Source: Acidimicrobiia bacterium (GTDB lineage Bacteria > Actinomycetota > Acidimicrobiia > Spongiisociales > JAENVV01). From it: a stretch of DNA of 64,000 bases. Under the pieces are notes generated by a model, which saw only the letters and a program-made list of their open reading frames with translations, did no database searches and was not told the DNA's origin. Both the position numbers and the translations under genes were made by a program. Within the stretch, counting starts at the first letter, position 1. Each line of letters opens with the position of its first letter. The stretch spans positions 1 to 64,000 of the forward strand of contig JBFGJH010000005.1 of assembly GCA_041577335.1 (NCBI GenBank), given 5' to 3'. Below, piece after piece: positions 48,177 through 64,000 of this stretch.

Positions 48177-48702
48177 CTACCGCTCTGGACAGTCCGCCGA
48201 TTGCGACGGCGGCCAGGTGGCATGGTCGTTCACCCACACCACTTCCCCGTCGTCGTCGGTCTTGCCAGAAGATCGGAGACCGAGCCTGGTGGCGACGGCG
48301 TGGGAAGCGGAGTTGTCGGGATGAATATGAGCGAGGAGCGCCGTAACGCCATTGCCCTCGAGCCATTCGCACACCGCCCGGGCAGCCTCGGTCGCCAATC
48401 CTCGGTTCTGCCATTCCAGGCCGATGACCCACGCCAGATCAGCGCCTGCCGGGCGGACCGTCGCTTGAACGATCCCGATCGTGACTCCCTGCAAGCGCAC
48501 CACCCACGTGAGCCATGCCTCCTCATCGTCGCCGGACCCCGCCGGCATCCGCTCGAACCTCGTCCGCAGGACATCGCGGGGTGAGCTCGGCCCCACCGAT
48601 GAACTGGAGCATTGCCGGATCATCGAACACTCCGACGAGCGAGCCGGCATCGTCCAGCGTGATCGGGTCGAGCCCCAGCCGGGGCGTGTCGAGCCTCTCC
48701 AT
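48177..48702 (-). pseudogene. RimJ/RimL-type GNAT acetyltransferase with a frameshift near 48578-48581
   Basis: N-half [13 protein letters not shown]...FIGGAELT in one frame; C-half RDVLRTRF...WQNRGLATEA...IHPDNSASHAVA..LG in another. Confidence 0.8.
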
Positions 48703-48743
48703 TCGCAGCACGTCGGGATTCTTGCACGCCAGCATTTGGTTCT

Positions 48744-48772
48744 TTGACGAACGAACGTTCGTTTCATATGAT
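48744..48772 (+). promoter_or_regulatory. paaA promoter (TTGACG-N17-TATGAT) with a palindromic operator in the spacer
   Basis: Perfect palindrome AACGAACGTTCGTT at 48750-48763; ATG 6 nt after the -10. Confidence 0.8.
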
Positions 48773-48778
48773 GCGATC

Positions 48779-49702
48779 ATGGAGCAAGCAGCCCTTTTTC
48801 AGCAGGTCATCGACGATGAGCAAAAGATCGAGCCGCGAGACTGGATGCCAGACGGCTACCGGCAAACGCTCATTCGGCAGATCGCCCAACACGCCCACTC
48901 CGAGGTGATCGGCATGCAGCCCGAGGGCAACTGGATCACCCGAGCGCCGAGCCTGAAACGAAAAGCGATCCTGATGGCCAAGGTCCAGGACGAAGCCGGG
49001 CACGGGCTGTATCTCTACAGCGCAGCAGAGACGCTCGGAGTCACCAGGGACGAGGTCGTCGACAAGCTCCACACCGGCCGGCACAAATACTCCTCGATAT
49101 TCAACTACCCCACCGTGACGTGGGCCGACATCGGCGCCATCGGTTGGCTTGTAGACGGCGCCGCGATCACCAACCAAGTGATGCTCACTCGTTGCTCATA
49201 CGGTCCCTACGCCCGCGCCATGGTCCGGATATGCAAGGAGGAGAGTTTCCACCAGCGGCAGGGATACGAGATCATGCTGACGCTTTCAAAGGGCACTCCG
49301 GCGCAAAAAGACATGGCGCAAGATGCCCTCGACAGGTGGTGGTGGCCCTCCCTCATGATGTTCGGGCCTCCCGACGCTGACTCCACCCATTCGGAACAGT
49401 CCATGGAATGGAAGATCAAACGGGTGTCGAATGACGACCTGCGCCAGCAGTTCATCGACATGACGGTCCCCCAGGCCGAGTACCTCGGCCTGGCCATCCC
49501 AGACCCCGATCTCGCCTGGAACGAATCGCGCGGTCATTACGACATCGGGCCTATCGACTGGGACGAGTTCTGGGAGGTTGTCGCTGGACGAGGTCCCATG
49601 AATCAAGAACGCATCGATCACAAGAACCAGGTGTGGGACGACAACGCATGGGTGCGAGAGGCGGCATCGGCGCACGCCCGCAAACAAAGGAAGACTGCCT
49701 GA
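48779..49702 (+). CDS. paaA: Phenylacetyl-CoA epoxidase subunit A
   Basis: [46 protein letters not shown]. Confidence 0.97.
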
Positions 49703-50034
49703 TGGTGTACGAAGGTCATGGCGCCCCAGACGACGCCCCAACGGACGGGAGCGGCACCAGCGAGTGGCCACTCTGGGAAGTGTTCATCCGTGCCCGGCGC
49801 GGCATGTCCCACATCCATGCCGGAAGCCTCCACGCACCCGACAGCGAAACTGCTCTGCAAAACGCCCGGGACGTGTACACCCGCAGACGGGAAGGAACGT
49901 CGGTCTGGGTGGTCCCATCAACTGCGATCGCAGCCTCCGACCCCCATGACGAGGGCCTGCTGGCGTCCTCGGATGACAAGCCGTATCGGCACCCGACCTT
50001 CTATGAGATCCCTGAAGAAGTGGGGCACATGTGA
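49702..50034 (+). CDS. paaB: Phenylacetyl-CoA epoxidase subunit B
   Basis: WPLWEVF.R, GSLHAPD...AL.NARDVYTRR.EG.S.WVV, DK.YRHP.FY. Confidence 0.96.
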   Translation: MVYEGHGAPDDAPTDGSGTSEWPLWEVFIRARRGMSHIHAGSLHAPDSETALQNARDVYTRRREGTSVWVVPSTAIAASDPHDEGLLASSDDKPYRHPTFYEIPEEVGHM

Positions 50035-50774
50035 GCGCCCTCTTCACCTACCTGCTGCGCCTTGCCGACGATCGACTGATCCTGTCCCATCGCCTTGGCG
50101 AATGGTCGTCGCGGGCGCCCGACCTCGAGGAGGATATTGCCCTCACCAATATCGGCCTCGACCTATTGGGTCATGCCCGCTCGCTCTATCAATACGCAGC
50201 CGAGGTAGAGGGGGCAGGACGAGACGAAGACGCTCTGGCGTTCCATCGAGACGAGAGGGAATTCTTCAACCTGGTGCTGGTAGAGCAGCCCAACGGATCT
50301 TTCGCCGACACGATCGCCCGTCAGTTCCTTTTCGACGCGTTCCAACTCCCCCAGTGGAAGGCGCTGATGGGCAGCTCGGACGAACGCCTCGCGGCCATCG
50401 CTGCCAAGGCCCACAAGGAAGCCCAATATCATCTCCGCCACTCCCGCAGCTGGGTCGTCAGGCTGGGAGACGGAACCGACCTTTCTCACGACCGCATGCA
50501 GAAGGCACTGGTCAAGGTCTGGCGCTATTCAGCCGAGCTGTTCTGGAGCGATGAGATCGAGGACTCGCTGCCGGGAGTTGCCGTGCTACCCGAGACGCTT
50601 CGTTCGGAGTGGCAGGCGACGGTCACCGCTGCCATCGCCGACGCGACGCTGACTGTCCCTGACACGCCATCCACGCTTCTCTCGGGCCGAACCGGCATCC
50701 ACAGCGAGCCGCTCGGGCGGATCTTGGCAGAAATGCAATACCTGCCTCGGATGCATCCGGAGGCGGTGTGGTAA
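50031..50774 (+). CDS. paaC: Phenylacetyl-CoA epoxidase subunit C
   Basis: LRLADD.LIL..RL.EW...AP.LEEDIAL.NI.LD..G.AR, AIA.K..KE..YH, EMQYL.R.HP...W. Confidence 0.96.
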   Translation: MSALFTYLLRLADDRLILSHRLGEWSSRAPDLEEDIALTNIGLDLLGHARSLYQYAAEVEGAGRDEDALAFHRDEREFFNLVLVEQPNGSFADTIARQFLFDAFQLPQWKALMGSSDERLAAIAAKAHKEAQYHLRHSRSWVVRLGDGTDLSHDRMQKALVKVWRYSAELFWSDEIEDSLPGVAVLPETLRSEWQATVTAAIADATLTVPDTPSTLLSGRTGIHSEPLGRILAEMQYLPRMHPEAVW

Positions 50775-51229
50775 CCGAGGCGCAGGCATGGGAGGTTGCC
50801 GCCACCGTGGTGGACCCCGAGATCCCCGTCCTCACGATCGCCGACCTGGGCATCCTTCGTGAGGTTCACGTCGAAGGCGACAGTGTCGATATCGTCATCA
50901 CGCCGACGTATTCGGGATGCCCGGCCATGGACCAGATCCGCCAGGACATCGAAGCGGCTTTCCGGGCTATCGGCCTGGGCCCCGTCACGATATCCACCAA
51001 ACTTTCGCCTGCGTGGACAACCGACTGGATGTCGCCGGAGGGCAAGGCGAAGCTCAACGATTTCGGGATCGCCCCACCTCGAACAGGATCTGACGAGCCG
51101 ATCCTGTGCCCGCAATGCTCGGCAGGTGGCAGCCGGCTGGTGTCGGAGTTTGCATCGACTGCGTGCAAGGCCCTGCGGGTTTGTCAAAGCTGCGGCGAGC
51201 CTTTCGACCATTTCAAAGAGCTCCGATGA
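50768..51229 (+). CDS. paaD: Phenylacetyl-CoA epoxidase subunit D
   Basis: DPEIPVLTI.DLG, TPTYSGCPA, PAWTTDW, CP.C...ST.CKA...C..C.EPF..FK. Confidence 0.96.
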   Translation: MVTEAQAWEVAATVVDPEIPVLTIADLGILREVHVEGDSVDIVITPTYSGCPAMDQIRQDIEAAFRAIGLGPVTISTKLSPAWTTDWMSPEGKAKLNDFGIAPPRTGSDEPILCPQCSAGGSRLVSEFASTACKALRVCQSCGEPFDHFKELR

Positions 51230-52287
51230 CCGACATCACCTTCCACGAACTCAAAGTGAATGCAGTGACCCCGCTCACCGCCGATGCGGTTGCGATCGCC
51301 CTGGAAGTGCCACCCCATCTCGAAGACCTCTTCGAGGCCCGCGCCGGACAGCACGTGACCGTGCGCGCCGCCATCGATGGTGAGGACGTGCGGCGCAGTT
51401 ATAGCTATTGCCGCAAGCCCCGCCGCGGCTTCATCGACATCGGCGTCAAACGGCTTCCAGATGGGAAATTCTCGACCTTTGCCACCTCTCAGCTGAAGGC
51501 GGGCCACACTTTGGAGGTTGCCCCTCCAGCCGGAGAGTTCACGCTGCCGCCTGCCGATGGCCCTCGCCATATCGCCGCGATCGCGGCCGGAAGCGGAATC
51601 ACGCCGGTGAAGTCACTCATCGAGACGGTGCTCTCCGACGAGCCAGGAGCCACAGCTACTCTCGTGTACGGCAACAGAACGCCCGCGACGGTCATGTTCC
51701 TCGACGACCTCGCCGACATCAAAGACCTCCATCCCGACCGGTTCCAGCTGATCCATGTGCTGTCTCGCGATCCGGGGGCGTTGCCGCTGTTCGCGGGTCG
51801 GATCGATCGGGAGCGGATCGCGGAACTGCTCGACGTGCTGATCGATCCGGGGCAGGTGGACGAATGGTATCTCTGTGGCCCCTACGACATGGTCACCGGA
51901 GCACGTGCCACTCTCATCGAACGAGGCGTTGCCGCCGATCGGATCCATGACGAGTTGTTCTTCTCGGGCCCGATCGACATCCCCGAGCCACCACCGGAGG
52001 ACGAAGAAGGGACCGTTCTGCTTCGCTTTCTCGCCGACGGGATCACCTCCGAGGTGAGGATGCGACCCGAGACCGCCATCTTGGACGCTGCCCTGTCGGT
52101 GCGACCCGAAATGGCTTACTCGTGCCGAGGCGGAATGTGCGCCACCTGCAAAGGCAAGGTGCTCGAAGGTTCTGCCGCCATGGACAAAAACTACGCCCTC
52201 ATCCAGGCAGAGACCGATGCCGGGTTCGTGCTCACCTGCCAGGCCCACCCCACAGCAGACGCCGTGTTCGTGGATTACGACGCGTGA
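51226..52287 (+). CDS. paaE: Phenylacetyl-CoA epoxidase reductase (FAD, [2Fe-2S])
   Basis: RRSYS, AAGSGITP, LCGP..M, YSCRGGMCATC...LTCQ. Confidence 0.95.
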   Translation: MTDITFHELKVNAVTPLTADAVAIALEVPPHLEDLFEARAGQHVTVRAAIDGEDVRRSYSYCRKPRRGFIDIGVKRLPDGKFSTFATSQLKAGHTLEVAPPAGEFTLPPADGPRHIAAIAAGSGITPVKSLIETVLSDEPGATATLVYGNRTPATVMFLDDLADIKDLHPDRFQLIHVLSRDPGALPLFAGRIDRERIAELLDVLIDPGQVDEWYLCGPYDMVTGARATLIERGVAADRIHDELFFSGPIDIPEPPPEDEEGTVLLRFLADGITSEVRMRPETAILDAALSVRPEMAYSCRGGMCATCKGKVLEGSAAMDKNYALIQAETDAGFVLTCQAHPTADAVFVDYDA

Positions 52288-52844
52288 CCCAGACCAGTCG
52301 CCAAGATGTGATCGACGCGGCGGGGCGTCTTTTCGCCAAGCGTGGCTACCACGGCACGTCGATGAGGACGCTCGGCAAAGAGCTTGGCCTGGTTGGATCA
52401 TCGCTGTACTCACACGTCGGCAGCAAGGAGGAGCTGCTGGTCGAGGTAGTGCGACACGGCGCGGCGCTGTTCGAGGCCTCCGTCGACAGAGCCCGGGCTG
52501 GCGGAGGCGACGGAGCCACCCAACTACGCAACCTCATCACCGGCCACCTCGACGTGGTGCTCGACAACCGCGACGCGGCGTCGACGTATCTCAACGAGGC
52601 CTCGGTGCTGGACGCTGATCATCGCAATCAGGTACGCGCCGAACGCAACCGATACGAACAGGCGTTCCGGGAGGTCTTCGACCTCGGCACCAAGGACGGT
52701 TCGCTTCCGAAGGCCGCAGACCCCAAACTCGCTGCCATTTTCACGCTATCGGTGCTGAACGCGGTCCCGCGGTGGTACCGGCCGCTTGGGCCCCTCGACC
52801 GGACAGACCTGGCAGACGAGATCTTCAGCTTCGTGACCCGCTAG
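52284..52844 (+). CDS. TetR-family regulator (likely PaaR-type repressor)
   Basis: A..LF...GY.GTS...L...LG....SLY.H..SKE.LL; GTG overlaps the paaE stop. Confidence 0.88.
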   Translation: MTQTSRQDVIDAAGRLFAKRGYHGTSMRTLGKELGLVGSSLYSHVGSKEELLVEVVRHGAALFEASVDRARAGGGDGATQLRNLITGHLDVVLDNRDAASTYLNEASVLDADHRNQVRAERNRYEQAFREVFDLGTKDGSLPKAADPKLAAIFTLSVLNAVPRWYRPLGPLDRTDLADEIFSFVTR

Positions 52845-52914
52845 CCCAGTCGTTCGACCACAGAATGGAGCGCCCGGGTACGGAGAGGTGGCAGGGGCCG
52901 CTAGGTTGCGGTGA

Positions 52915-53592
52915 ATGGATTTCACGCTCACAGCTCCCGACGGATCCGACTGGACCTTGTCGGATCATCTTGACGCCCCGGCGGTTCTGTTCTTCCTGAG
53001 GGGAGACTGGTGAGCGTATTGCAACGGCCAGCTGGTCAGCTTGGCCTCCCGACACGAAGACTTCCTCGCCGCCGGGGGCCGGATCTTTGGCATCGTTGTT
53101 GACAGCCCAGCGCAGAATTCGGCGCTGATCCAGAAGCTCAGCCTGCCGTTCCCGATCTTGTCCGATCCCGACCGAGGTGAGGCAATCAGCCCGATGGGAT
53201 ACAGCAACGCCACCGACCCTCGCAACATAGCCCTGCCGGGCACGGTGATCATCGGCACCGACGGGGCCGACGCCTTTCGCTGGGAGTCACGGGACTTCGC
53301 AGACCGCATCCCGGAGGACGACGTGATCGCAGCGCTCGAACGTATCGGGGGTCCGGCAACCTCTCAAGAGCCACCCACGCTGGGCCCGGCAGAGCCCGGC
53401 CCCAAGGCACTGCCGTTCGAGCAGATGGGCCCCTACTTCCGAGGTGCCCGCTTCGCTGCGCAAGCCCTGGGGCTACGGCACAAGGACGCCTACCCCGATA
53501 TCAAAGACGACAGTAAGGCCTACATCGCCGAGATGGATCGCTACCTCGCTGCGTACAACGCCCTCAAGGAGTCACGGGCCAACAAGACCTAA
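52915..53592 (+). CDS. AhpC/TSA (peroxiredoxin-like, thioredoxin-fold) selenoprotein with a UxxC motif
   Basis: ATG 52915 reads MDFTLTAPDGSDWTLSDHLDAPAVLFFLRGDW-TGA(53011-53013)-AYCNGQL in frame with track ORF 53041..53592 (L.FP.LSDP...PGT.II..DG). Confidence 0.88.
53026..53046 (+). promoter_or_regulatory. Putative bacterial SECIS hairpin
   Basis: GGCCAGCT-GGTC-AGC(T)TGGCC; 8-bp stem with one bulged U, starting 12 nt after the UGA; loop begins with GG. Confidence 0.75.
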
Positions 53593-56500
53593 ACCTCGAT
53601 GGGTACGTGCGGCGTATCGCCCCGCCGCTTGTGCCACTGGTCCCACAAGACGAGCATCGACGGCAGCAAGAGCAGCGACGTCAGGAGCGCAAAGGCGATG
53701 GCGTAGAACGTCACAGCTCCGAACTGGCGGAACGGCGTGAGGTTCGACGTCACCAAAGAGCCGAAGCCCGCCATGGTCGTCATCGCCGAGCCTGCCAGTG
53801 CTCCTCCCGTGTGGAGGGTTGTCGACCGGATGGCGCTCTCCGTGGTTTCATACCGCACGCGGTCCTCTTGGAATCGGTGCGTGATGTGGATGGTGTAGGG
53901 AACACCAATTCCAATGGCCAATGCCGAGATCGTCGCCGTCACCGGGCCAAACGGGATACCGGTGAGGGCCATCATGCCAAAGGTCAACAGGACCACCAGG
54001 CCAACGGGCAGCATGGTAATGACACCCAGCAAAGGCTGACGCGACTCGATCCAGAAGTTCACTACCAGGAGCAGCGTCGCCGCTGCCAGGGTGATGAGCA
54101 GCGACTGCAACTGCGACTCCTGGAGTGACTTCACGACGACATCTCCGATGATGTCGTTGGAGGTCGGTACGGCCGACCCGTCCTGGGCGGTGACCGGCGC
54201 GAACGCCTCGCGCAGATTGGTGTTGAGTTCCCCGGCACGCGCATCGCCGGCTTGGGTGCTGATGCTCCACAGCGAGGCATCCCCATTGACAACGGCGGCA
54301 AATCCCTCGGGGTTCGCCTCTTCGACGAGGCCGTAGATGGCTCCAACGTCGGCGTCTGCGGAGACGCGGAGATCCGCTCCCAGCCCGGCGTCAGCCGCGG
54401 CGATCGCGACTGACTCGTTGTAGCCCGGAGACTGCGGGTTCACCATGTTGCCGATCACGGACAGAACCGAGTCCGCCGATGCCGACCCGCCAAACAGCAC
54501 GACGTCCTCGGTGTCGGCCAGATTCTCGAGAGCATCGACCTGAGCATTGTGGAATGCAGCCGTCTCCACATCGCCCTTCACGAGCACGCTGGTCGACTCG
54601 CCGAACCCCCCACCAAACTCTTCGGTGAGGAGATCGAGCGACTCGAGCAACGGATTGTCACTCGGCACGAAGTCGGTGAACGAAAACTCGGTGGACAGCT
54701 GTTGCCGCCCGTACTCGCCGACGCCCGCAAGGACGAGCCCGACGATGACCACCGGAATGGCGGCGTGAGTTGCCAGCTTGGCTGTCGGTCCAACAATCTT
54801 CGGCAGGTAGACGAGGATGCCGCCGACAGCTGCGCCGATGAACATGAAGATGATGAGGCCCACCGGCTGGAAGCTGTCGCCAAAAGGTGTCTCGTTCAAC
54901 GAGGAGTCGAGGAACGCCGACACTGCGTAGACGAAGACACCGCCGATGATTCCTGCCAAAACTGCACCGACGAGGGAGCCGCTGGCTTCGGAAGCAGCAC
55001 CCAGTGCCGCCTTCGGCAACCGACCTGCTCTTTCAGCCCGGCGATCGAGGAGCTCTCGGACCGCAGGCACGAAGGTCAACATCAGAACGAACGATGCAAC
55101 AATGCCGACGGCCGCCAGGATTCCAAAATCCTTCAATGCCGGCACCGGGCTGACCAAGTTGGTCAGGAACCCGACGGCGGTCGTCACTGTGGCGAGCACG
55201 AGCGCAACACCGACCGTCTTGATCGCCGCCTGGATGGCGTTGTCAACCGACTCGTGCCCTACCTCTTCTCGGTATCGGAACGTCATGTGGATCCCGTAGT
55301 CGACACCGAGGCCGATGAGGAGGATCGGCAGGATCTGGACGATTTGGTTGAAGTCGCCGATCACGCCGAGGTATTTCGGGCCGAGCAGCACCCCCGCACC
55401 CTGCATGAACCCGATCGCCAAGAAAATCGTCACGAGCGTGAGCGCCGTTTCAGCACCGGTACGCCGCGCCGCCAGACCGATGCGATTGCGGTACCAGAAG
55501 TTGAAGAGAAGGATCACGAGGATGATGGCGCCGGCGAGGCCGAACATACGCCCGATCTCAGCTGTGGCATCGCCGCCGGAGGCGAAGATCAGGCCGAACG
55601 AGAATGCCTTGGCCTCGAAGCCTTCGGGCAGGTCGAGCCCGGCGAGCTGATCGGCCAACGCCTGCTGGCGCAAACCGAAGGCTTCCTGCTCGTCCGCGGG
55701 TGCGTCGGTGAGGAACACGAGCATCAGGCCATGGCTCGCCGTGAGAGCGTCCATATCGCGATCCGCACCGAGAAGATTCGATACGACACCCGCCTGCTCC
55801 GCCGGGATGAATGCGAGCCCGTCGCGATAACCGGCTTTCAGCTCTTCGGTCGTTGGAGCCACGGCCGGAGTGAAACCGACGGTGATGCCATCGACGTCGA
55901 CCCCGGTCAGCATGTCGGCCAGGGCCGCTTCCTCGTCTGCGGTCAACGGTTCGGTGAGATTGGCAACCACCAAGCCCTTCGAGGCAACGTTGGCAACCCG
56001 GTCTCGGTCACTTGCCATGAGAAAGTCGAGGAATGGCGCCACATCCGCAGGCAAGAATGCCAGCCGGTCGGCGTACAGGGTCTTGAAGTCCTCCCCGGTC
56101 GCGCCCGGATCGAGAACTCGGGCCGAGAAGGGAGTGGACAGGCCGGCGACCGCAGATGCGAGCTCGGCGACTTCGTCGGGCGTGGCAGGCTCGGAGAGGT
56201 TGACGGTGATCAGGCCTTTGGCGGCCGTGGCAGCCTCGAGATCGGCGTCGTTGGAAACCAGGAACGGGAGGAAGCCAGCCACCTCTGGCGGGAGATCGGC
56301 CTGGCCTCCGAGATATGCCTGCTTGATCGCCTCCGTGTCAGCATCGGCCGGTAATGCCCCTTGGGCGATCGCGACGTCGACCGGGAGAAGGAACGTGGTG
56401 ATCGGCGACTGATCCGGAACGTCCAGGAGCTTCTCGCCGATCGACGAAAATACAGCTTGCTGCACCGCGTTGCTCGTTTGCAGGCCTTCGGCCGTGAAGA

Positions 56501-57113
56501 CGTCGCCATCTCCAGCATCGACGACGATCTGGATCGTTGGCCCCTGTCCGGGTGCTGACGCCAGCGGAGCCATGAACGAGACAAAGGGGCCCTGCGGCGA
56601 CTCGGTGTCGAGCTTCGCCGCAGCTGGTGACTCGAAGACAGCCTGCTGGATGGCATTCACGGCCTCCAGGCCCTCGGGTGAGACCACATCGTCACCAGAA
56701 ACGACGACTCGCACCGTCGGGTTTCCCCCCGCTTGGCCTTCGAGGGGCGCCAAGAACGATACGACCGCCCCAGTGCCTTCCTGCTGTTGGAGGTCGGCAG
56801 CCACCTCGCTCGATTCGATGGTCGACGAGATCTGCTGGACCGTCTCGAGGCCCTCCGCGCTCAAGACATCTCCGTCGTCGGTGGCGACAATCACCTGAAG
56901 CACCACGCTTGACGATTCGTCACCGAAGACCTCGCCGATTTCCTCCGCCGCCGTCAGCTCTTCTGCATCAGGCGCAAACCCCTCGTTGGCATCGGCCATG
57001 ACAATCTGGCTCGAGAACGACGCCACGATGAAGGTTGCCGCGATCACCGCCACGATCGTGATGATTGGATGACGACGGACCGAGATGGCGAGCAGATTGA
57101 TGACGGACTTCAC
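53589..57113 (-). CDS. MMPL/RND-family transporter with a greatly expanded first extracytoplasmic loop
   Basis: TM1, large loop, ILLIGLGVDYGIH, ATVTTAVGF, second half GIGVPYTIH, SAMTTMAGFG; 1174 aa. Confidence 0.93.
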   Translation of the reverse strand: MKSVINLLAISVRRHPIITIVAVIAATFIVASFSSQIVMADANEGFAPDAEELTAAEEIGEVFGDESSSVVLQVIVATDDGDVLSAEGLETVQQISSTIESSEVAADLQQQEGTGAVVSFLAPLEGQAGGNPTVRVVVSGDDVVSPEGLEAVNAIQQAVFESPAAAKLDTESPQGPFVSFMAPLASAPGQGPTIQIVVDAGDGDVFTAEGLQTSNAVQQAVFSSIGEKLLDVPDQSPITTFLLPVDVAIAQGALPADADTEAIKQAYLGGQADLPPEVAGFLPFLVSNDADLEAATAAKGLITVNLSEPATPDEVAELASAVAGLSTPFSARVLDPGATGEDFKTLYADRLAFLPADVAPFLDFLMASDRDRVANVASKGLVVANLTEPLTADEEAALADMLTGVDVDGITVGFTPAVAPTTEELKAGYRDGLAFIPAEQAGVVSNLLGADRDMDALTASHGLMLVFLTDAPADEQEAFGLRQQALADQLAGLDLPEGFEAKAFSFGLIFASGGDATAEIGRMFGLAGAIILVILLFNFWYRNRIGLAARRTGAETALTLVTIFLAIGFMQGAGVLLGPKYLGVIGDFNQIVQILPILLIGLGVDYGIHMTFRYREEVGHESVDNAIQAAIKTVGVALVLATVTTAVGFLTNLVSPVPALKDFGILAAVGIVASFVLMLTFVPAVRELLDRRAERAGRLPKAALGAASEASGSLVGAVLAGIIGGVFVYAVSAFLDSSLNETPFGDSFQPVGLIIFMFIGAAVGGILVYLPKIVGPTAKLATHAAIPVVIVGLVLAGVGEYGRQQLSTEFSFTDFVPSDNPLLESLDLLTEEFGGGFGESTSVLVKGDVETAAFHNAQVDALENLADTEDVVLFGGSASADSVLSVIGNMVNPQSPGYNESVAIAAADAGLGADLRVSADADVGAIYGLVEEANPEGFAAVVNGDASLWSISTQAGDARAGELNTNLREAFAPVTAQDGSAVPTSNDIIGDVVVKSLQESQLQSLLITLAAATLLLVVNFWIESRQPLLGVITMLPVGLVVLLTFGMMALTGIPFGPVTATISALAIGIGVPYTIHITHRFQEDRVRYETTESAIRSTTLHTGGALAGSAMTTMAGFGSLVTSNLTPFRQFGAVTFYAIAFALLTSLLLLPSMLVLWDQWHKRRGDTPHVPIEV

Positions 57114-57181
57114 GGCGACCTCTCAAGTGAAATATTTCTCAAGAAGGCTGGATGCTATCGGTAGCCGCAGCAGATGTGTAA

Positions 57182-58258
57182 TCAATCAACGAAGACGCCG
57201 AGTTCGGCCAGGAGCCGGCGGTTCTCGTCAGGGGTCCCGACGGTCACCCTGACGTGGGCCGGACCGATCGGACGGGTGATGATTCCGCGAGTGAGCAAAC
57301 GTTCAACGATCCCCCGCCCATCGCCGAACGGACCGGTCATCACGAAGTTCGTCTGTGAAGGGGCGTAGGGAATGCCCCGATCCGCAAACGCCGCCTCGAG
57401 GCGGGATCGCTCGGCGTCATTCTCTACGACCCGAGCTGCGACGAGATCCTGATGCTTCAGGGCCTCGACGGCGGCAGCCTCGGCAAGCACGCTGACCACG
57501 AACGGCGCCTGGGGTTTGGAGATCTCCGCCATCGTTTCCGGTCGACCGACCGCGTAACCGACCCGCAACCCAGCCAGGCCATAAACCTTGGAAAAGGTCC
57601 GAGTCCAGACCACGTTGGGCAGCTCCATCGCCAGGTCCAAGGCAGGCTCGAACCGTGGATCCGTGGCGTACTCGCCATACGCTTCGTCGATCACCACCAA
57701 CACCGTATCGGGCAGAGCCCGCACGAACGCCTCCACGTCATCGCTCCCACAGATCGTGCCACTCGGATTGTTGGGGTTGCACAAATACACGATGGTCGTA
57801 TCGGCTCGGACGGCATCGCGCATGGCATCGAGGTCATGGGCGGCATTGGCGTCGAGAGGGACCGGAATCGGCTCGGCGCCCGCCACATCGGTGGCGATGG
57901 GGTACATCGCAAACGAAGGCCACGCAAACACCGCCGAAGTTCCCGGCCCGCCCACAGCTAGCGCCATTGTCCTCAACACCTCGGAGCTGCCCGCCCCGAC
58001 CCACACAGAGTCACGGTCGACACCGAGGTGCGTCGCCAGTGCCGACCGGATGGCAAAGTAGTCGTTGTCCGGATAGCGATTCAGGTCGCCGATACGTGAT
58101 TCGATGGCCTCGAGGACCGGCTCGAACGGCGGGTATGGACACTCGTTGGAGGCGAGCTTGATGATCGACTCGAGGCCGTATTCGCGCATCACGGCATCCA
58201 TGTCTCGACCGGCTTCGTACCGGCGAATACCTTGAACTTGTGGACGAATTCGCAACAT
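57182..58258 (-). CDS. hisC: Histidinol-phosphate / aromatic amino acid aminotransferase (HisC/Pat family)
   Basis: KLASNE, NRYPD, CNPNNPSG, DEAY.EY, RTFSKVYGLAGLRVGY; start re-called to ATG 58258. Confidence 0.85.
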   Translation of the reverse strand: MLRIRPQVQGIRRYEAGRDMDAVMREYGLESIIKLASNECPYPPFEPVLEAIESRIGDLNRYPDNDYFAIRSALATHLGVDRDSVWVGAGSSEVLRTMALAVGGPGTSAVFAWPSFAMYPIATDVAGAEPIPVPLDANAAHDLDAMRDAVRADTTIVYLCNPNNPSGTICGSDDVEAFVRALPDTVLVVIDEAYGEYATDPRFEPALDLAMELPNVVWTRTFSKVYGLAGLRVGYAVGRPETMAEISKPQAPFVVSVLAEAAAVEALKHQDLVAARVVENDAERSRLEAAFADRGIPYAPSQTNFVMTGPFGDGRGIVERLLTRGIITRPIGPAHVRVTVGTPDENRRLLAELGVFVD

Positions 58259-58320
58259 GTGGCAAGGGTAGACCACCTGGGCCGGCGTCATCGGGCAGTG
58301 CGGTCCGCGATACTTGACCC

Positions 58321-60381
58321 ATGCGCCAGATACTCGACATCGACGGCACACTCGCACCAGACGCTCGCTCCTTCTCCGATGCGCTGGTTGCGGACATGTA
58401 TCGCCTCATGGTGCGGACACGCGCCTATGACCGACAGGCGATGGGGCTACAACGGCAGGGAAGAATCGGCACGTATCCGCCGTCGGAGGGCCACGAAGCC
58501 GCCCAGATAGGCGCAGTCTTGGCGTTGGGTCCCGACGACTGGGTGTATCCCGCCTATCGGGAGCACGGCGCGGAGCTGGCGATGGGCATGCCAATCGAAG
58601 TGATCCTGTCCTATTGGAGAGGCCTGCCCAACCCCGAGTGGAACCCACACGTCTACCGAGTCGGCACGCTCGCCGTCCCCATCGGGAGCCACCTGCCACA
58701 TGCCGTAGGTCACGCGTACGAAGCACGCCGGGCAGGACGCTCTATCGTCACGATGTCGTTCATGGGAGACGGCACAACGTCCTCGAATGATTTCCATTCG
58801 GCCCTCACGTTTGCGGGCGTATGGAAGACACCGTCGGTGTTCGTCTGCCAAAACAACCAGTGGGCGATCTCGACGCCGGTGGCCCGCCAAACCGGAGCAG
58901 CTCACCTCGTCGACAAAGCCATCGGCTACGGGATCGAGGGTGTCCGGGTGGATGGCATGGACGCACTGGCCGTCTACGAAGCAGCATCGGAGGCGGTAGC
59001 CCGAGCCCGGGACGGCTCAGGACCGACCTTCATCGAAGCGGTGTGCTATCGACTGGGGCCGCACGCCACAGCCGACGATCCCAGTTTGTATCGAAGTGAC
59101 GATGAGGTGGAGCAGTGGCGGCCACGAGATCCGCTGACGCGCATGCGCCGCCTCATCGATCGGCGCGGGCTGGCGGTCGACACGGGCCACGTGGAACACC
59201 AGACCACCCAAGAGGTGCAAGAAGCAATCGCCAAGATCGAACAACGGCCACAGCCCGCTCGCGGGGACGCCATTCGGCACGCCATGGTCCGAATTCCTCA
59301 ACCAATGATCGACCAGATGCACAAGGCCGAAGACGCCCGCGACGAAGAGCGGACCGACTACGGCATCGACGAGCTGTGGCCCCATGCGGAGGATCCGCAC
59401 CCCGTCGGATCGGTACGGTCGATGACCATGGCGGAAGCGATCTCCGCCGCCATCACCGAGGCGATGGACAGCGATGATCGAACGGTTGTGCTCGGCGAGG
59501 ACGTCGGCGCCACCGGCGGCGTATTCCGCATCACCGCGGGCATGTTGGAGAAATATGGATCAGAGCGAATCATCGATACACCTCTCAACGAGTCGGGGAT
59601 CATCGGCACGGCCATCGGCATGGCGTTGGGCGGAGGACGGCCCATCGCTGAGATTCAGTTTGACGGCTTCGTCTATCCCGCCATGGACCAGATCGTCAAT
59701 CACCTGGGCCGGCTGCGATACCGAAGCCGCGGCGCCCTGGCGGTCCCCGTCGTCGTCCGGATGCCCAACGGAGCGGGCATCGGGGCACACGAGCACCACT
59801 GCGACTCCCCGGAGACGTACTTCGTGCACACACCCGGCATCGTGGTCGTGGTCCCATCGAATCCTGTCGACGCCAAAGGGCTGCTGGCGGCCGCGCTCGA
59901 GTCGGACGACCCGGTGATGTTCTTGGAGCCCAAAGTTCGCTATCGCTCGCCGCGGGGCGAGGTACCAACCGATCGGTACACAATCCCGCTCGGCAGGGCA
60001 GCCATCGTCGACGAGGGATCTGACGTGACAGTCGTGACGTACGGCGGCATGGTGTTGCCGGCGCGCAAGGCGGCCGCCGAGGTCGACGCCTCCGTGGAGG
60101 TCGTCGACCTACGAACGCTCTATCCGTGGGACGAACAAGCGGTGCTCGGATCTGTCGCCAAAACCGGGCGACTCGTGTTGGTTCAAGAGCCGCCCCAGAC
60201 AGCCGGCATGGTCGCCGAGGTGGCCGCCGTGGTCGCCGAGAAAGCCGTCTACGATCTCGCCGGCCCCATTGTCCGTGTCTGCGGGTTCGACACGCCGATC
60301 CCCCATTTTGCTGTGGAAGAGCACGGCCTCGTCGACGTCGCCGACATCGTTGCGGGAATCCATCGGGCGTTGGCCGGCTGA
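58321..60381 (+). CDS. Fused 2-oxo acid dehydrogenase E1 alpha+beta (PdhAB/BkdAB-like)
   Basis: Alpha: LQRQGR, GHEAAQ, GDG...NNQWAIS, YR...H...DD. Beta: GEDVG..GGVFR, DTPL.E.GI.G, EIQF, EHH. One continuous ORF. Confidence 0.93.
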   Translation: MRQILDIDGTLAPDARSFSDALVADMYRLMVRTRAYDRQAMGLQRQGRIGTYPPSEGHEAAQIGAVLALGPDDWVYPAYREHGAELAMGMPIEVILSYWRGLPNPEWNPHVYRVGTLAVPIGSHLPHAVGHAYEARRAGRSIVTMSFMGDGTTSSNDFHSALTFAGVWKTPSVFVCQNNQWAISTPVARQTGAAHLVDKAIGYGIEGVRVDGMDALAVYEAASEAVARARDGSGPTFIEAVCYRLGPHATADDPSLYRSDDEVEQWRPRDPLTRMRRLIDRRGLAVDTGHVEHQTTQEVQEAIAKIEQRPQPARGDAIRHAMVRIPQPMIDQMHKAEDARDEERTDYGIDELWPHAEDPHPVGSVRSMTMAEAISAAITEAMDSDDRTVVLGEDVGATGGVFRITAGMLEKYGSERIIDTPLNESGIIGTAIGMALGGGRPIAEIQFDGFVYPAMDQIVNHLGRLRYRSRGALAVPVVVRMPNGAGIGAHEHHCDSPETYFVHTPGIVVVVPSNPVDAKGLLAAALESDDPVMFLEPKVRYRSPRGEVPTDRYTIPLGRAAIVDEGSDVTVVTYGGMVLPARKAAAEVDASVEVVDLRTLYPWDEQAVLGSVAKTGRLVLVQEPPQTAGMVAEVAAVVAEKAVYDLAGPIVRVCGFDTPIPHFAVEEHGLVDVADIVAGIHRALAG

Positions 60382-60385
60382 CCCC

Positions 60386-60925
60386 ATGGCTCAGCGTGTC
60401 TCCGTATTCGGTTCATCGTCGCCGAGGCCCGGAGATGATCTGTACGCATCGGCACTCGAGCTCGGCACCCGGTTGGCGACGGCGGGGTACGTTGTCGTCA
60501 CCGGCGGCTATGGCGGGCTCATGGAGGCGACGTCGCGAGGAGCAGCCGAGGCCGGTGGACATGTCGTGGGCGTGACCGCACCAGCACTCTTCCCCAACCG
60601 GGCCGGCCCGAACGTATGGGTGTCGGAAGAGTCGGCACACGCTACGTTGCTGCAACGCATCGACTGCCTCGTCGAGATGAGCGCCGCGGCGATTGTCCTG
60701 CCCGGCTCGATCGGTACCCTCGCCGAGCTCGTCGCATTCTGGAACCATGCCTTCGTCGCCCGATTCTCGGACTCGCCGCCTCGTCCTCTCATCGCCGTCG
60801 GGGAACCATGGCGCTCGCTGGTTCCGACGCTTGCCGCAACGCTCGACACCGACGGGAGCCTGGTGACTCTGGTCGACGACGAGCAGACAGCGGCCAATGA
60901 ACTGACGAAACGGCTGCCGGGCTGA
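60386..60925 (+). CDS. LOG-family nucleotide-binding protein
   Basis: VSVFGSS, TGGYGGLMEA.S.GA, LPGSIGTLAEL. Confidence 0.88.
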   Translation: MAQRVSVFGSSSPRPGDDLYASALELGTRLATAGYVVVTGGYGGLMEATSRGAAEAGGHVVGVTAPALFPNRAGPNVWVSEESAHATLLQRIDCLVEMSAAAIVLPGSIGTLAELVAFWNHAFVARFSDSPPRPLIAVGEPWRSLVPTLAATLDTDGSLVTLVDDEQTAANELTKRLPG

Positions 60926-61000
60926 CATAGGCGACCTGCATCCGCCGACCGGCGGAGAAGCACATCAGGTCCCAGATGGCCGGTAAACTTCCTGGCGCTC

Positions 61001-61894
61001 ATGGCAAACAACCACATCCTTGCGGCCGGCGGCATCGTATGGCGACGCGGCCAATCGGGCGTTGAGACTCTCCTTGTCCACCGCCCCAACTACAACGACT
61101 GGGCCTTTGCAAAAGGGAAAGTCGACCCTCACGAGTCGGTGCGAGAAGCCGCTCGCCGAGAGGTGTTCGAAGAGACAGGCCTGAGGACGATCCTCGGTCC
61201 TTACCTCGGCTACTTGGAGTACGTCACCGACGCCGGCAACGACAAAACTGTCCACTATTGGGCAATGAAGGCGGTCGGCGGGCGCTTTCGACCCAATTCA
61301 GAGGTGGACAAGGTCAGGTGGCTGTCCACCGATGAAGCCGCCAAGAACATGACCTACAAGCGCGATCGGATGTTCTTCCTCGGCCTTGGAGCCAAATGGT
61401 GGAAAGCCCGTCCGCAAGTACTGCTCCTCCGCCATGCCTACGCCGGCCGGCGCTCGGGGTCGGCAGGCGACGATCGGAAACGGCCACTGTCCGTGCGCGG
61501 CAAGGAACAGACCCTCCAAATCGCCGACTCGTACGCCGACCTTGGGATCAGCAGGATTGTTTCGAGCCCCTACGACCGGTGTGTGCAGACGGTTGAGCCA
61601 CTGGCGGAGGCCATCGGGCTCGAGATCGAAACGCACGAGGCGCTCGCTGAAGGTGCCGACGTCGCCGATACGGCCAAGCTGTTGCGCAAGCTGGCAAAGA
61701 AGCAATCGCTGGCTGTCACTCACGGTGACAACGTCTTCGACGTGCTCACCTATCTGTCCGATCGGGGCATGACGCTACCTCCGATCGTCAACGCCAAAAA
61801 GGGATCAACCTGGGTGCTCATCCCGGATAAGGACCGAAACTTCGTTTCGAGCACCTACTGGCCACCACCGCCTAGGCCTCATAGGAACCGGTGA
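61001..61894 (+). CDS. mutT1: NUDIX hydrolase fused to a histidine phosphatase domain (MutT1-like)
   Basis: HRP.Y.DW...KGK, Nudix box AARREVFEETG, RHA.AG.R, SSP..RC.QTV.PLA. Confidence 0.88.
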   Translation: MANNHILAAGGIVWRRGQSGVETLLVHRPNYNDWAFAKGKVDPHESVREAARREVFEETGLRTILGPYLGYLEYVTDAGNDKTVHYWAMKAVGGRFRPNSEVDKVRWLSTDEAAKNMTYKRDRMFFLGLGAKWWKARPQVLLLRHAYAGRRSGSAGDDRKRPLSVRGKEQTLQIADSYADLGISRIVSSPYDRCVQTVEPLAEAIGLEIETHEALAEGADVADTAKLLRKLAKKQSLAVTHGDNVFDVLTYLSDRGMTLPPIVNAKKGSTWVLIPDKDRNFVSSTYWPPPPRPHRNR

Positions 61895-64000
61895 GGGCCC
61901 GTTCCACCAGAGCGGCTTGCTGCTCGCCATGAAGTTGCTGTGAGCCGGTCGCCGGGGATGCCGACTCCGCTCGGCCGGCGTAGCCGAGTTTTTGGCCAGT
62001 GAGCTGTCGCAGCATGGGTCGCACATAGTTCCACGCACCCATATTGGCGGGCTCTTCCTGGGCCCACCACAGGTCGACGTCCGCGCCGTGCGATTCGAGC
62101 ACAGCCGCGACTTCATCGGCAGGCAGCGGATATAGCTGCTCGAGCCGCACGACCGCCACGTTCACCCCCAACTCCTCGCGCCGCGCAACCAGGTCGTAGT
62201 AGACCTTGCCGGAGCAGAGCACCATTCGGCGAGCCGACCCGAAGTCTGGGTCGGTCAAGACCGGTTGGAACGCACCGCCAGTGATCACCGAGGTTTCCGA
62301 GAATGATGGGCGGGTCCGAAGAAGGCTCTTGGGGGTGAAGATGATCGCCGGCTTCTTGGCCGACGACTTCACCTGGCGACGCAGCATGTGGAAGTAGGAA
62401 CCTGCCGACGACGGCACCAAGACCCGCCAGTTGTTCTCCGCCGACGACTGCAGGTACCGCTCGATGCGAGCTGACGAATGCTCCGGGCCTTGACCTTCGA
62501 AGCCATGCGGCAAAAGCATCACCAGGCTGGAACGCTGGCCCCATTTGTCCTCACCGGCAGAGATGAACTGATCGACGATCACTTGGGCGCCGTTGGCGAA
62601 GTCGCCGAACTGCCCCTCCCACATCACGAGCGCGTCCGGTGATTCGATCGAATAGCCATATTCGAAGCCCACCGCGGCGAACTCGCTGAGCAAAGAATCG
62701 ACGATCCGCAGGCGGGCGCGGTCGGCGTAGAGATCTTGCAGCGCCAGCCAATCCTCTCCGGTGTTGAAGTCGGTGAGGGCGGCATGCCGATGCGAGAACG
62801 TGCCGCGTTGCGAGTCCTCGCCGGCGAGACGGACCCAGTGGCCCTCAGCCTTCAACGAGCCCATCGCCAGAGCTTCGGCGACCGCCCAATCAACATGCCC
62901 TTCCTCCAGCATCTTCTGGCGGCTTTCGACAATTCGCTCGAGCTTGGGGTGGACCGTGAAACCATCGGGAAGCGTCGAGATTGCGCCGATGATCTCCTCA
63001 ACGATGGCCGGACCGATGGCAGTGACCCCATCGGCCTCAGCAACGTCTTGCGGGGCGGTGGAAGACGGTCGGGCGGGGGTTTCCCGTGTCTCCTCGAACG
63101 CCCGGCTGAGCAGGGTTCGGAACTCCTCCAGCAGCTGTTCGCCCTCTTCCAGAGAAAGCACCCCGGTGTTCACGAGGCGTTCGAGATAGAGCTTTCGGAC
63201 CGACCGTGTGGCGTCGATGATCCGGTACATGATCGGTTGTGTGAAGGACGGCTCGTCGCCCTCATTGTGGCCACGTCGTCGGTACGCGATCATGTCGATG
63301 ACTACGTCTTTGTTGAAGGCCTGGCGGAAGGCAAAGGCAAGCCGGGTCGCCCGAACCACCGCTTCTGGATCGTCGCCATTCACGTGAATGATGGGAGCGG
63401 CCACCGTCTTGGCGACGTCTGTGGCATAGAAGCTCGACCGGGCATCGAGGGTCGAGGTCGTGAAACCCACCTGGTTGTTGATCACCACGTGAACGGTTCC
63501 ACCCGTGCGATACCCGCGCAGCTGCGAGAGGTTCAGCGTCTCGGCGACCACGCCCTGGCCGGCAAACGCCGCGTCGCCGTGCATCAACACCGGGAGCACC
63601 TTGTGGTGCCCGTAGCTGCCATGACGCTCTTGCTTCGCCCGGGCGATGCCTTCCAACACCGGGTCGACGGCCTCCAGGTGACTCGGGTTGGCGGCGACAC
63701 TGACCTCGATCTTCTTCCCAAACGGGGTCTCGTGGATGCCGGTGGCGCCGAGGTGATACTTCACGTCGCCGGATCCCTGGGTCAGGTCGACGTCCATGTC
63801 ACCTTCAAACTCACGGAACACCTTGGCATAAGACTTCCCGATGATGTTGGCCAGGACATTGAGCCGCCCTCGATGCGCCATCGCCATGGCGACTTCTTCC
63901 ATGTCGTCGTCGACGGCTGCGGTCAGCAACGTATCGAGCAGTGGAATGAGGCTTTCTGAGCCCTCCAGGCCGAAACGCTTGTGGCCTATGTACTTCGTGT
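61872..64000 (-). CDS. kgd: 2-oxoglutarate dehydrogenase E1 / multifunctional Kgd, 3' part; 5' end lies outside the window
   Basis: KRFGLEG, MAHRGRLNVL, GDVKYHLG, HGDAAFAGQG, WEGQFGDFANGAQ, GQGPEHSSAR, QEEPANMGAW. Confidence 0.95.
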   Translation of the reverse strand, partial: TKYIGHKRFGLEGSESLIPLLDTLLTAAVDDDMEEVAMAMAHRGRLNVLANIIGKSYAKVFREFEGDMDVDLTQGSGDVKYHLGATGIHETPFGKKIEVSVAANPSHLEAVDPVLEGIARAKQERHGSYGHHKVLPVLMHGDAAFAGQGVVAETLNLSQLRGYRTGGTVHVVINNQVGFTTSTLDARSSFYATDVAKTVAAPIIHVNGDDPEAVVRATRLAFAFRQAFNKDVVIDMIAYRRRGHNEGDEPSFTQPIMYRIIDATRSVRKLYLERLVNTGVLSLEEGEQLLEEFRTLLSRAFEETRETPARPSSTAPQDVAEADGVTAIGPAIVEEIIGAISTLPDGFTVHPKLERIVESRQKMLEEGHVDWAVAEALAMGSLKAEGHWVRLAGEDSQRGTFSHRHAALTDFNTGEDWLALQDLYADRARLRIVDSLLSEFAAVGFEYGYSIESPDALVMWEGQFGDFANGAQVIVDQFISAGEDKWGQRSSLVMLLPHGFEGQGPEHSSARIERYLQSSAENNWRVLVPSSAGSYFHMLRRQVKSSAKKPAIIFTPKSLLRTRPSFSETSVITGGAFQPVLTDPDFGSARRMVLCSGKVYYDLVARREELGVNVAVVRLEQLYPLPADEVAAVLESHGADVDLWWAQEEPANMGAWNYVRPMLRQLTGQKLGYAGRAESASPATGSQQLHGEQQAALVERALTGSYEA

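Follow-up and report, generated by a model that had tools for sequence, protein, structure and literature searches.

The porter module of resistance-nodulation-division (RND) transporters is described as a β1-α1-β2-X-β3-α2-β4 unit in which X is a common insertion site (PMC8277102). In the account given there, the inserts of HpnN are unrelated helical domains, the second loop of Cluster I MmpLs is enlarged by an unrelated insert, and the docking domains DN and DC of AcrB, located at the β2-β3 site of PN2 and PC2, are proposed derivatives of the porter fold. For HpnN, NPC1 and Patched, a substrate cavity between two sandwiches and partner-binding functions of the insertion are reported (10.1101/352443). 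Recursive domain insertion, defined by the order A1-B1-C-B2-A2, is reported for Si3 of cyanobacterial RNA polymerase, in which one domain type (SBHM) is inserted into itself with 6-level nesting (PMC13114784); SBHM-2 to SBHM-5 are described as discontinuous and the structure as 150 Å long (PMC10895346). Here we analysed 64,000 nucleotides from an Acidimicrobiia bacterium (order Spongiisociales, family JAENVV01; assembly GCA_041577335.1, contig JBFGJH010000005.1, positions 1 to 64,000; hereafter the window), in which an open reading frame (ORF) at 53589..57113 on the minus strand encodes a 1174-residue RND transporter (MMPL in Pfam; HAE3/HpnN/NPC1-like). The transporter is of a known kind, but its first outer loop, unlike the enlarged loops of HpnN and of Cluster I MmpLs, appears to have grown by two further copies of its own porter module, and this triple self-nested loop is a new feature that we consider real and well supported.

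The loop following transmembrane helix 1 (TM1, predicted at residues 16-36; 57006..57068, on the minus strand as are all features of the gene) is acidic (D+E 16%, K+R 3%), presumably extracytoplasmic, and carries three copies of one module followed by three copies of another, in the order A1A2A3-B1B2B3. The A copies comprise residues 70-125 (A1; 56739..56906), 132-185 (A2; 56559..56720) and 192-246 (A3; 56376..56540) and the B copies residues 259-334 (B1; 56112..56339), 339-414 (B2; 55872..56099) and 421-503 (B3; 55605..55853), with a short single helix, h0 (predicted at residues 247-258; 56340..56375), linking A3 to B1. The first-pass annotation had reported this arrangement for the span 55599-56906 (residues 70-505), and the significance of the repeats was checked here by local alignment, with z scores taken against 500 shuffles. 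All six pairs within a class, A1-A2 (23/51 identical, z 15.3), A1-A3 (17/53, z 11.9), A2-A3 (25/52, z 16.2), B1-B2 (31/68, z 18.7), B1-B3 (29/69, z 14.3) and B2-B3 (31/69, z 17.2), scored above the best of the shuffles, and these z scores of 12-19, set against z of at most 1.3 in all nine A-B pairs, confirm three A modules followed by three B modules. Copies share 31-47% protein identity and the third codon positions, identical in just 31-44% of aligned codons, are saturated, so the repeats are old rather than an assembly artefact. Misassembly or a recent repeat is ruled out by this saturation together with the absence of long DNA repeats in the loop and the existence of 34 distinct three-copy loops. 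The second extracytoplasmic loop (residues 806-1000; 54114..54698) was said to hold a single copy, as proved to be the case: the A and B profiles detected no repeat in it and its own profile gave one alignment against the first loop in its single-copy form (hhalign probability 94.9, E 4.7e-8). Judged from these profiles the two loops are homologous, with the second forming one unrepeated porter module (PD2). The A and B profiles gave no further significant match in the rest of the genome. The repeats are missing from two further genes of the MMPL family in this genome (G000), C39 and C111, and from its SecD-like gene C31.

In the full-length AlphaFold2 model (predicted local distance difference test, pLDDT, 81.3; predicted template modelling score, pTM, 0.66), each A copy is a β-α-β unit and each B copy a helical hairpin followed by a β-α-β unit. 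The segment A3-h0-B1 folded alone with pLDDT 94.7 and pTM 0.88, and its best matches were the lumenal modules of NCR1/NPC1 and Patched (Z 10.1, root-mean-square deviation (rmsd) 3.1, 135 aligned), indicating that one A plus one B make up one porter module; Foldseek with the single module returned nothing at E ≤0.001. The ranges of the model matched by known structures are nested. MmpL11 D2 aligns to residues 193-334 (Z 8.2, rmsd 2.0, 80 aligned), four ribosomal chains to 129-417/419 (Z 6.0-6.5), and both the Patched ectodomain (Z 9.3, rmsd 3.2, 144 aligned) and TM1266 (74/80 residues aligned) to 65/70-507, the matches to small single-domain chains (Z 6-9) serving only as boundary probes. When the AAA (66-250) and BBB (256-512) segments were submitted to ESMFold2 as separate chains, they scored 0.81, compared with 0.00 for the best of three controls, a mark attained by 116/157 solved and 2/215 mismatched pairs, although these counts are only approximate with our own alignment. 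The runs shared at least 97% of contacts, with partner pLDDT of at least 87. All 25 contacts listed, the best 25 of about 580, followed the nested pairing in antiparallel register: 15 between A2 and B2 (e.g. 136:382), eight between A3 and B1 (e.g. 196:302) and two between A1 and B3 (74:464, 72:466). The first loop is thus predicted to comprise a basal domain D1, formed by A1 (β1-α1-β2) and B3, a middle domain D2, formed by A2 and the helical hairpin and β3-α2-β4 of B2, and an innermost tip domain D3, formed by A3 and the corresponding elements of B1. In this prediction the outer domains are discontinuous and the inserted domain is itself a host, in agreement with the definition of recursive domain insertion.

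Copy number among homologues, surveyed with A and B profiles built in this analysis as the first-pass annotation had proposed, is consistent with this pairing. The 150 distinct complete loops (TM1 and TM4 both present) comprised 112 of the form AB, three AABB, 34 AAABBB and one in which only A was detected, so that one-, two- and three-copy forms exist, and unequal multiple copies occurred in none of the 150. Six N-truncated rows were excluded from the loop count; two of these (P0014, P0030) are the sole unbalanced multi-copy proteins and both lack the N-terminus, and independent expansion of A and B was accordingly rejected. More than three copies were found in none of 112 representatives, 75 database hits and 301 genomes of the order. 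Within the host family (22 genomes) the three-copy form was present in 18 (16 counted, two judged from full-length matches), the two-copy form in one and the one-copy form in two, and one genome, 69% complete, had no match; the sister genus (G005) and every other family searched have single-copy forms. The gene family was detected in 241/301 genomes of the order, which fits a housekeeping envelope role, with all 224 matches outside the host family at E ≥1e-30, as against <1e-190 for the three-copy form. One unpublished genome (G036) is counted in the host-family and order-wide tallies and in those for S-layer homology (SLH) domains and hopene cyclases below, and no claim depends on it alone. 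The profile of the single-copy loop found nothing significant among sequences of solved structures (best E 0.09), and the ESM Atlas gave only leads under 0.9.

A quick tree of 64 sequences, built from the part of the protein that begins at about TM2 and with the base of the multi-copy clade unresolved, placed every multi-copy protein on one side of a single branch (Shimodaira-Hasegawa-like approximate likelihood ratio test, SH-aLRT, 99); the multi-copy form therefore has one origin, in a single family. The helix h0 is also found at the A-B junction of single-copy relatives, and the nested copies occupy that site. The profile of 67 single-copy relatives scored best on A1 in 22/26 and on B3 in 26/26 three-copy proteins. 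Repeat positions were orthologous across six subclades in 31/36 comparisons, and all five exceptions were A3/A2 or B1/B2 swaps, the pattern that a sister relationship of D2 and D3 would produce. Two-copy forms appeared at two places within the three-copy clade and differ in what was lost: P0031 retains A1, A3, B1 and B3, one A and one B unit (A2 and B2) being missing at two separate places, and P0032 and P0033 retain A1, A2, B2 and B3, with A3 and B1 gone as one contiguous block that includes h0. Only nesting makes both reductions the loss of one whole domain, since parallel pairing explains P0031 alone. An interpretation of the two-copy forms as ancestral intermediates was disfavoured, given that the starred branches of the tree place P0031 within the three-copy proteins and that P0032 and P0033 lack the h0 helix common to one- and three-copy forms.

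Each half being a β-α-β unit, the halves could formally pair otherwise, either in parallel (A1/B1, A2/B2, A3/B3) or sequentially (A1+A2, A3+B1, B2+B3), and the nested pairing is predicted rather than measured. Several points weigh against it or limit its support. Of about 580 contacts, just the best 25 are given as pairs, and no more than two of these join A1 to B3; the ESMFold2 and AlphaFold2 predictions share one 32-row alignment of three-copy proteins and are hence not independent; the favourable ESMFold2 score could stem from resemblance to porter modules of solved structure; Gly and Pro are abundant in the linkers, and the model has a pTM of 0.66; the two-copy class amounts to three sequences; and the covariation of linker length (A2-A3 versus B1-B2, rho 0.59) is weak, driven by one-residue differences among kin, and was not used. 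On the other side, A1/B1 or A3/B3 occurred in none of the 25 best contacts, the second predictor also gave nested ranges with no sign of independent sequential A and B domains, sequential domains would not demand equal numbers of A and B, the loss of A3 and B1 in P0032 and P0033 would disrupt two parallel domains, and A1 and B3, the outermost halves, are those closest to the single-copy form. We regard the alternative pairings as very improbable and the nested fold A1/B3, A2/B2, A3/B1, backed by two predictors, equal copy numbers and matched losses, as very probably correct. The proposal in the first-pass annotation of a domain inserted into itself twice holds as a statement of topology, which the nested prediction, the equal counts and the matched losses all favour; as a history it is one of two possible routes to the order AAABBB, which could equally have come from tandem duplications of A matched by tandem duplications of B.

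With regard to family, the protein has the two-fold repeated 6-TM core of RND transporters, with one outer loop following TM1 and another following TM7, and predicted secondary structure and fold matches place a β1-α1-β2-(X)-β3-α2-β4 porter module in each loop; the model superposes on RND structures with Z 30-36 across 500-790 residues. Pfam MMPL (PF03176; 113 bits, gathering cut-off 20.5), Sterol-sensing and Patched all matched above cut-off, MMPL being a broad family that includes HpnN (PMC10942540). Scores fell below all narrower family cut-offs, with TIGR00921 (HAE3) the best NCBIfam match (209.4, curated cut-off 351.9) and lower scores for TIGR00833 (HAE2 type; 134.9 versus 874.7), the HpnN models (119.4 versus 751.85 and 87.4 versus 1100) and the MmpL3 model NF052608 (21.6 versus 1400). 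As in HAE3 proteins (HpnN, BstA; TIGR00921), one porter module per loop is interrupted at β2-β3, and HpnN (5khn) was the best sequence match (E 2.2e-11; model Z 30.4, rmsd 4.7, 634 aligned). The best whole-model fit was to NCR1 (8qee; Z 36.4, rmsd 3.6, 743 aligned), the fits to NCR1/NPC1/Patched having a lower rmsd than those to MmpL, and NPC1/NCR1 and Patched also gave the best single-module fit, helical part included, although these proteins and Dispatched are eukaryotic, have one module per loop and share 10-17% sequence identity with the transporter; the common fold does not imply sterol transport. The likely proton-relay residue, D605 (55299..55301), belongs to a TM4 Asp-Tyr motif conserved in 78/78 homologues counted, and TM11 carries Thr-Thr in 74/78. 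P1072 (53898..53900) in TM10 aligns with the second Asp of mycobacterial MmpL3, for which Asp-Tyr is described on both TM4 and TM10 (PMC10171966); here TM10 has Pro-Phe in 44 homologues and Pro-Tyr in 32, with two unmatched. The TM4 Asp-Tyr, the TM10 without acid and the TM11 Thr-Thr are all shared with HpnN. Mycobacterial MmpLs (HAE2; MmpL3, MmpL4/5, MmpL11) have in common with the transporter the Pfam MMPL match and the D3 core, which superposes on MmpL11 D2 (rmsd 2.0 over 80). The label of MMPL transporter given in the first-pass annotation thus stands for the Pfam family and the RND core, but the transporter is nearer the HpnN/NPC1/Patched type than mycobacterial MmpL.

The porter-in-porter arrangement has a one-level precedent in AcrB, which is heavily rearranged and completed by the adjacent subunit, whereas the transporter has two levels, sequence repeats that are still recognisable (31-47% identity) and variable copy number. 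Si3 offers a likeness in that recursive self-insertion of one domain type gives an elongated structure, but its fold and function are unrelated, it is cytoplasmic and its nesting is branching instead of plain AAABBB. Full-text literature searches for the architecture or the lineage found no multi-level self-nested RND loop described, though an entry in the ECOD insertion supplement of PMC13114784 is possible.

The open sheet faces, assigned from predicted contacts, separate the basal domain from the others. Hydrophobicity was 83% in D1, 73% in single-copy forms (37 rows) and 40-42% in D2 and D3; V71, Q73 and L463 on the D1 face were present in 32/32, and B3 retains both the long α2 and the hydrophobic sheet face seen in single-copy relatives. 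The open-face residues of D2 and D3 are polar and variable and their α2 is shorter than in D1, at a column identity of 0.41-0.47 for their halves and 0.50 for D1. As only the basal copy keeps the hydrophobic face, the outer copies probably serve as a stalk or tether and do not lengthen the tunnel. In the proposed mechanism, the module would start and end at one pole with the β2-β3 insertion site at the other, so that an inserted copy would rest atop its host; D1 and PD2 would form the route of a proton-driven lipid exporter, driven via D605 on TM4, and D2-D3 a non-conducting stalk keeping a partner-docking tip off the membrane. We find it probable that a hydrophobic component of the envelope is exported between D1 and PD2 with proton coupling, and consider the evidence for the stalk or tether role evenly balanced; the reading as a whole, a nested RND transporter with a basal export route and an outer stalk, could equally prove right or wrong. 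Squalene-hopene cyclase (TIGR01507) was matched in 0/41 genomes searched, with no control genome passing the cut-off either; the substrate may well be some other hydrophobic component of the envelope. Against a stalk that matters to the cell, the third copy was lost twice and nearly all relatives have single-copy forms, so the stalk is not needed everywhere, and no dedicated partner gene was found among the conserved neighbours of 42 loci.

The first-pass annotation had suggested a telescoped stalk spanning a thick wall or S-layer, with copy number related to envelope type. Neither idea was borne out. In 41 genomes of the order, and for SLH-type S-layer proteins only, copy number showed no link to SLH-domain content: matches were present in 27/41 in total (16/21 family relatives and 10/19 other genomes), absent from the three-copy genomes G011, G012 and G015 and the two-copy G006 (65-90% complete), and numbered 20 in the single-copy G005. 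The host genome itself has 30. With MmpL3 porter domains reported to project 35 Å (PMC10171966), we estimate a straight triple stack at about 10 nm at most. The same observations bear on the possibility that the outer copies lengthen the transport path toward a distant acceptor layer, perhaps paired across an oligomer. Head-to-tail stacking is implied by the module geometry, HpnN is described as a dimer (PMC8277102) and one end of the D2/D3 open face is still hydrophobic (V137/L381, V197/L301), yet PD2 is single and leaves D2 and D3 without an intrachain partner sheet, and their open faces are otherwise largely polar and variable. Together with the limited height and the lack of an SLH link, this makes a lengthened path improbable.

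Somewhat less unlikely, though still not favoured, is that the nesting is real but near-neutral, with a permissive β2-β3 site and copies fixed in the ancestor of one family and kept since an unpaired half would misfold. This would fit the single copy of 112/150 loops and of one genus of the same family, the two independent reductions, the disappearance of the conserved sheet face from the distal copies and the absence of any correlate of copy number in SLH content or gene neighbours. It accords poorly with the retention of three copies in 18/22 family genomes despite saturated third positions between copies, with that of A3-h0-B1, which one contiguous deletion could remove and yet is mostly kept, and with the conservation of the D2 and D3 halves near that of D1. 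A bolder form of the stalk reading, on which we place a similarly low likelihood, is a telescoping transporter: this Acidimicrobiia family would tune the reach of an envelope-lipid exporter by one, two or three self-nested modules, the tip docking onto an acceptor or wall layer whose distance differs by lineage, with selection for paired halves holding changes at the two gene sites together.

The family provides a clean natural example of a domain multiplied within itself, represented by forms with one, two and three copies and by two distinct matched losses. It opens to testing how nested repeats originate, whether unbalanced intermediates are tolerated and how folding proceeds when about 300 residues must pass before the first half of a chain meets its partner. 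In RND biology, it is relevant to how short-portered lipid exporters reach their acceptors, described as an open question for MmpL3 (PMC10171966), and protein design could draw on it for a stackable module whose two ends lie at the same pole.

Among the 14 predicted TM helices, two additional ones (about residues 710-772; 54798..54986) lie between TM6 and TM7 as an insert separating the two RND halves; only part of the multi-copy clade has this insert. TM6-TM7 spacing is about 209 residues with the extra pair and 152-153 in the others, and P0030 has an even bigger insert. Some single-copy relatives (L024, L033, L074, L077-L079, L082-L086, L088; P0056, P0082, P0083) carry an additional stretch of about 40-65 residues that separates the first loop from TM4. 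It is hydrophobic in P0082 and in P0083 and might be a membrane hairpin gained independently a second time; in L028 and L090 about 130 additional residues occupy this place. A single-copy orthologue from the same family (L035:797-2074; G010, genome 54% complete) stops after about 428 codons, perhaps through a split or a frameshift. P0180, whose 487 residues form tandem repeats of about 48 residues, matched the loop profile (E 3.6e-6) with no A or B match, probably by chance.

The transporter lies amid housekeeping genes, with hisC nearby in 25/42 loci, and no promoter or terminator consensus was seen in 57050-57400. A conserved upstream block (57182-63998 of the window), common to one- and three-copy loci, includes a hisC-like aminotransferase and ORFs that we take to resemble a fused E1 alpha-beta 2-oxoacid dehydrogenase, a NUDIX and histidine-phosphatase protein and a 2-oxoglutarate dehydrogenase. 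On the other side (48515-53592), a gene run, presumably phenylacetate-catabolism-like, a TetR regulator and a peroxiredoxin-like gene converge on the 3' end of the transporter gene, the last overlapping its stop by four bases; among the loci fetched, this run adjoins the transporter only in multi-copy loci.

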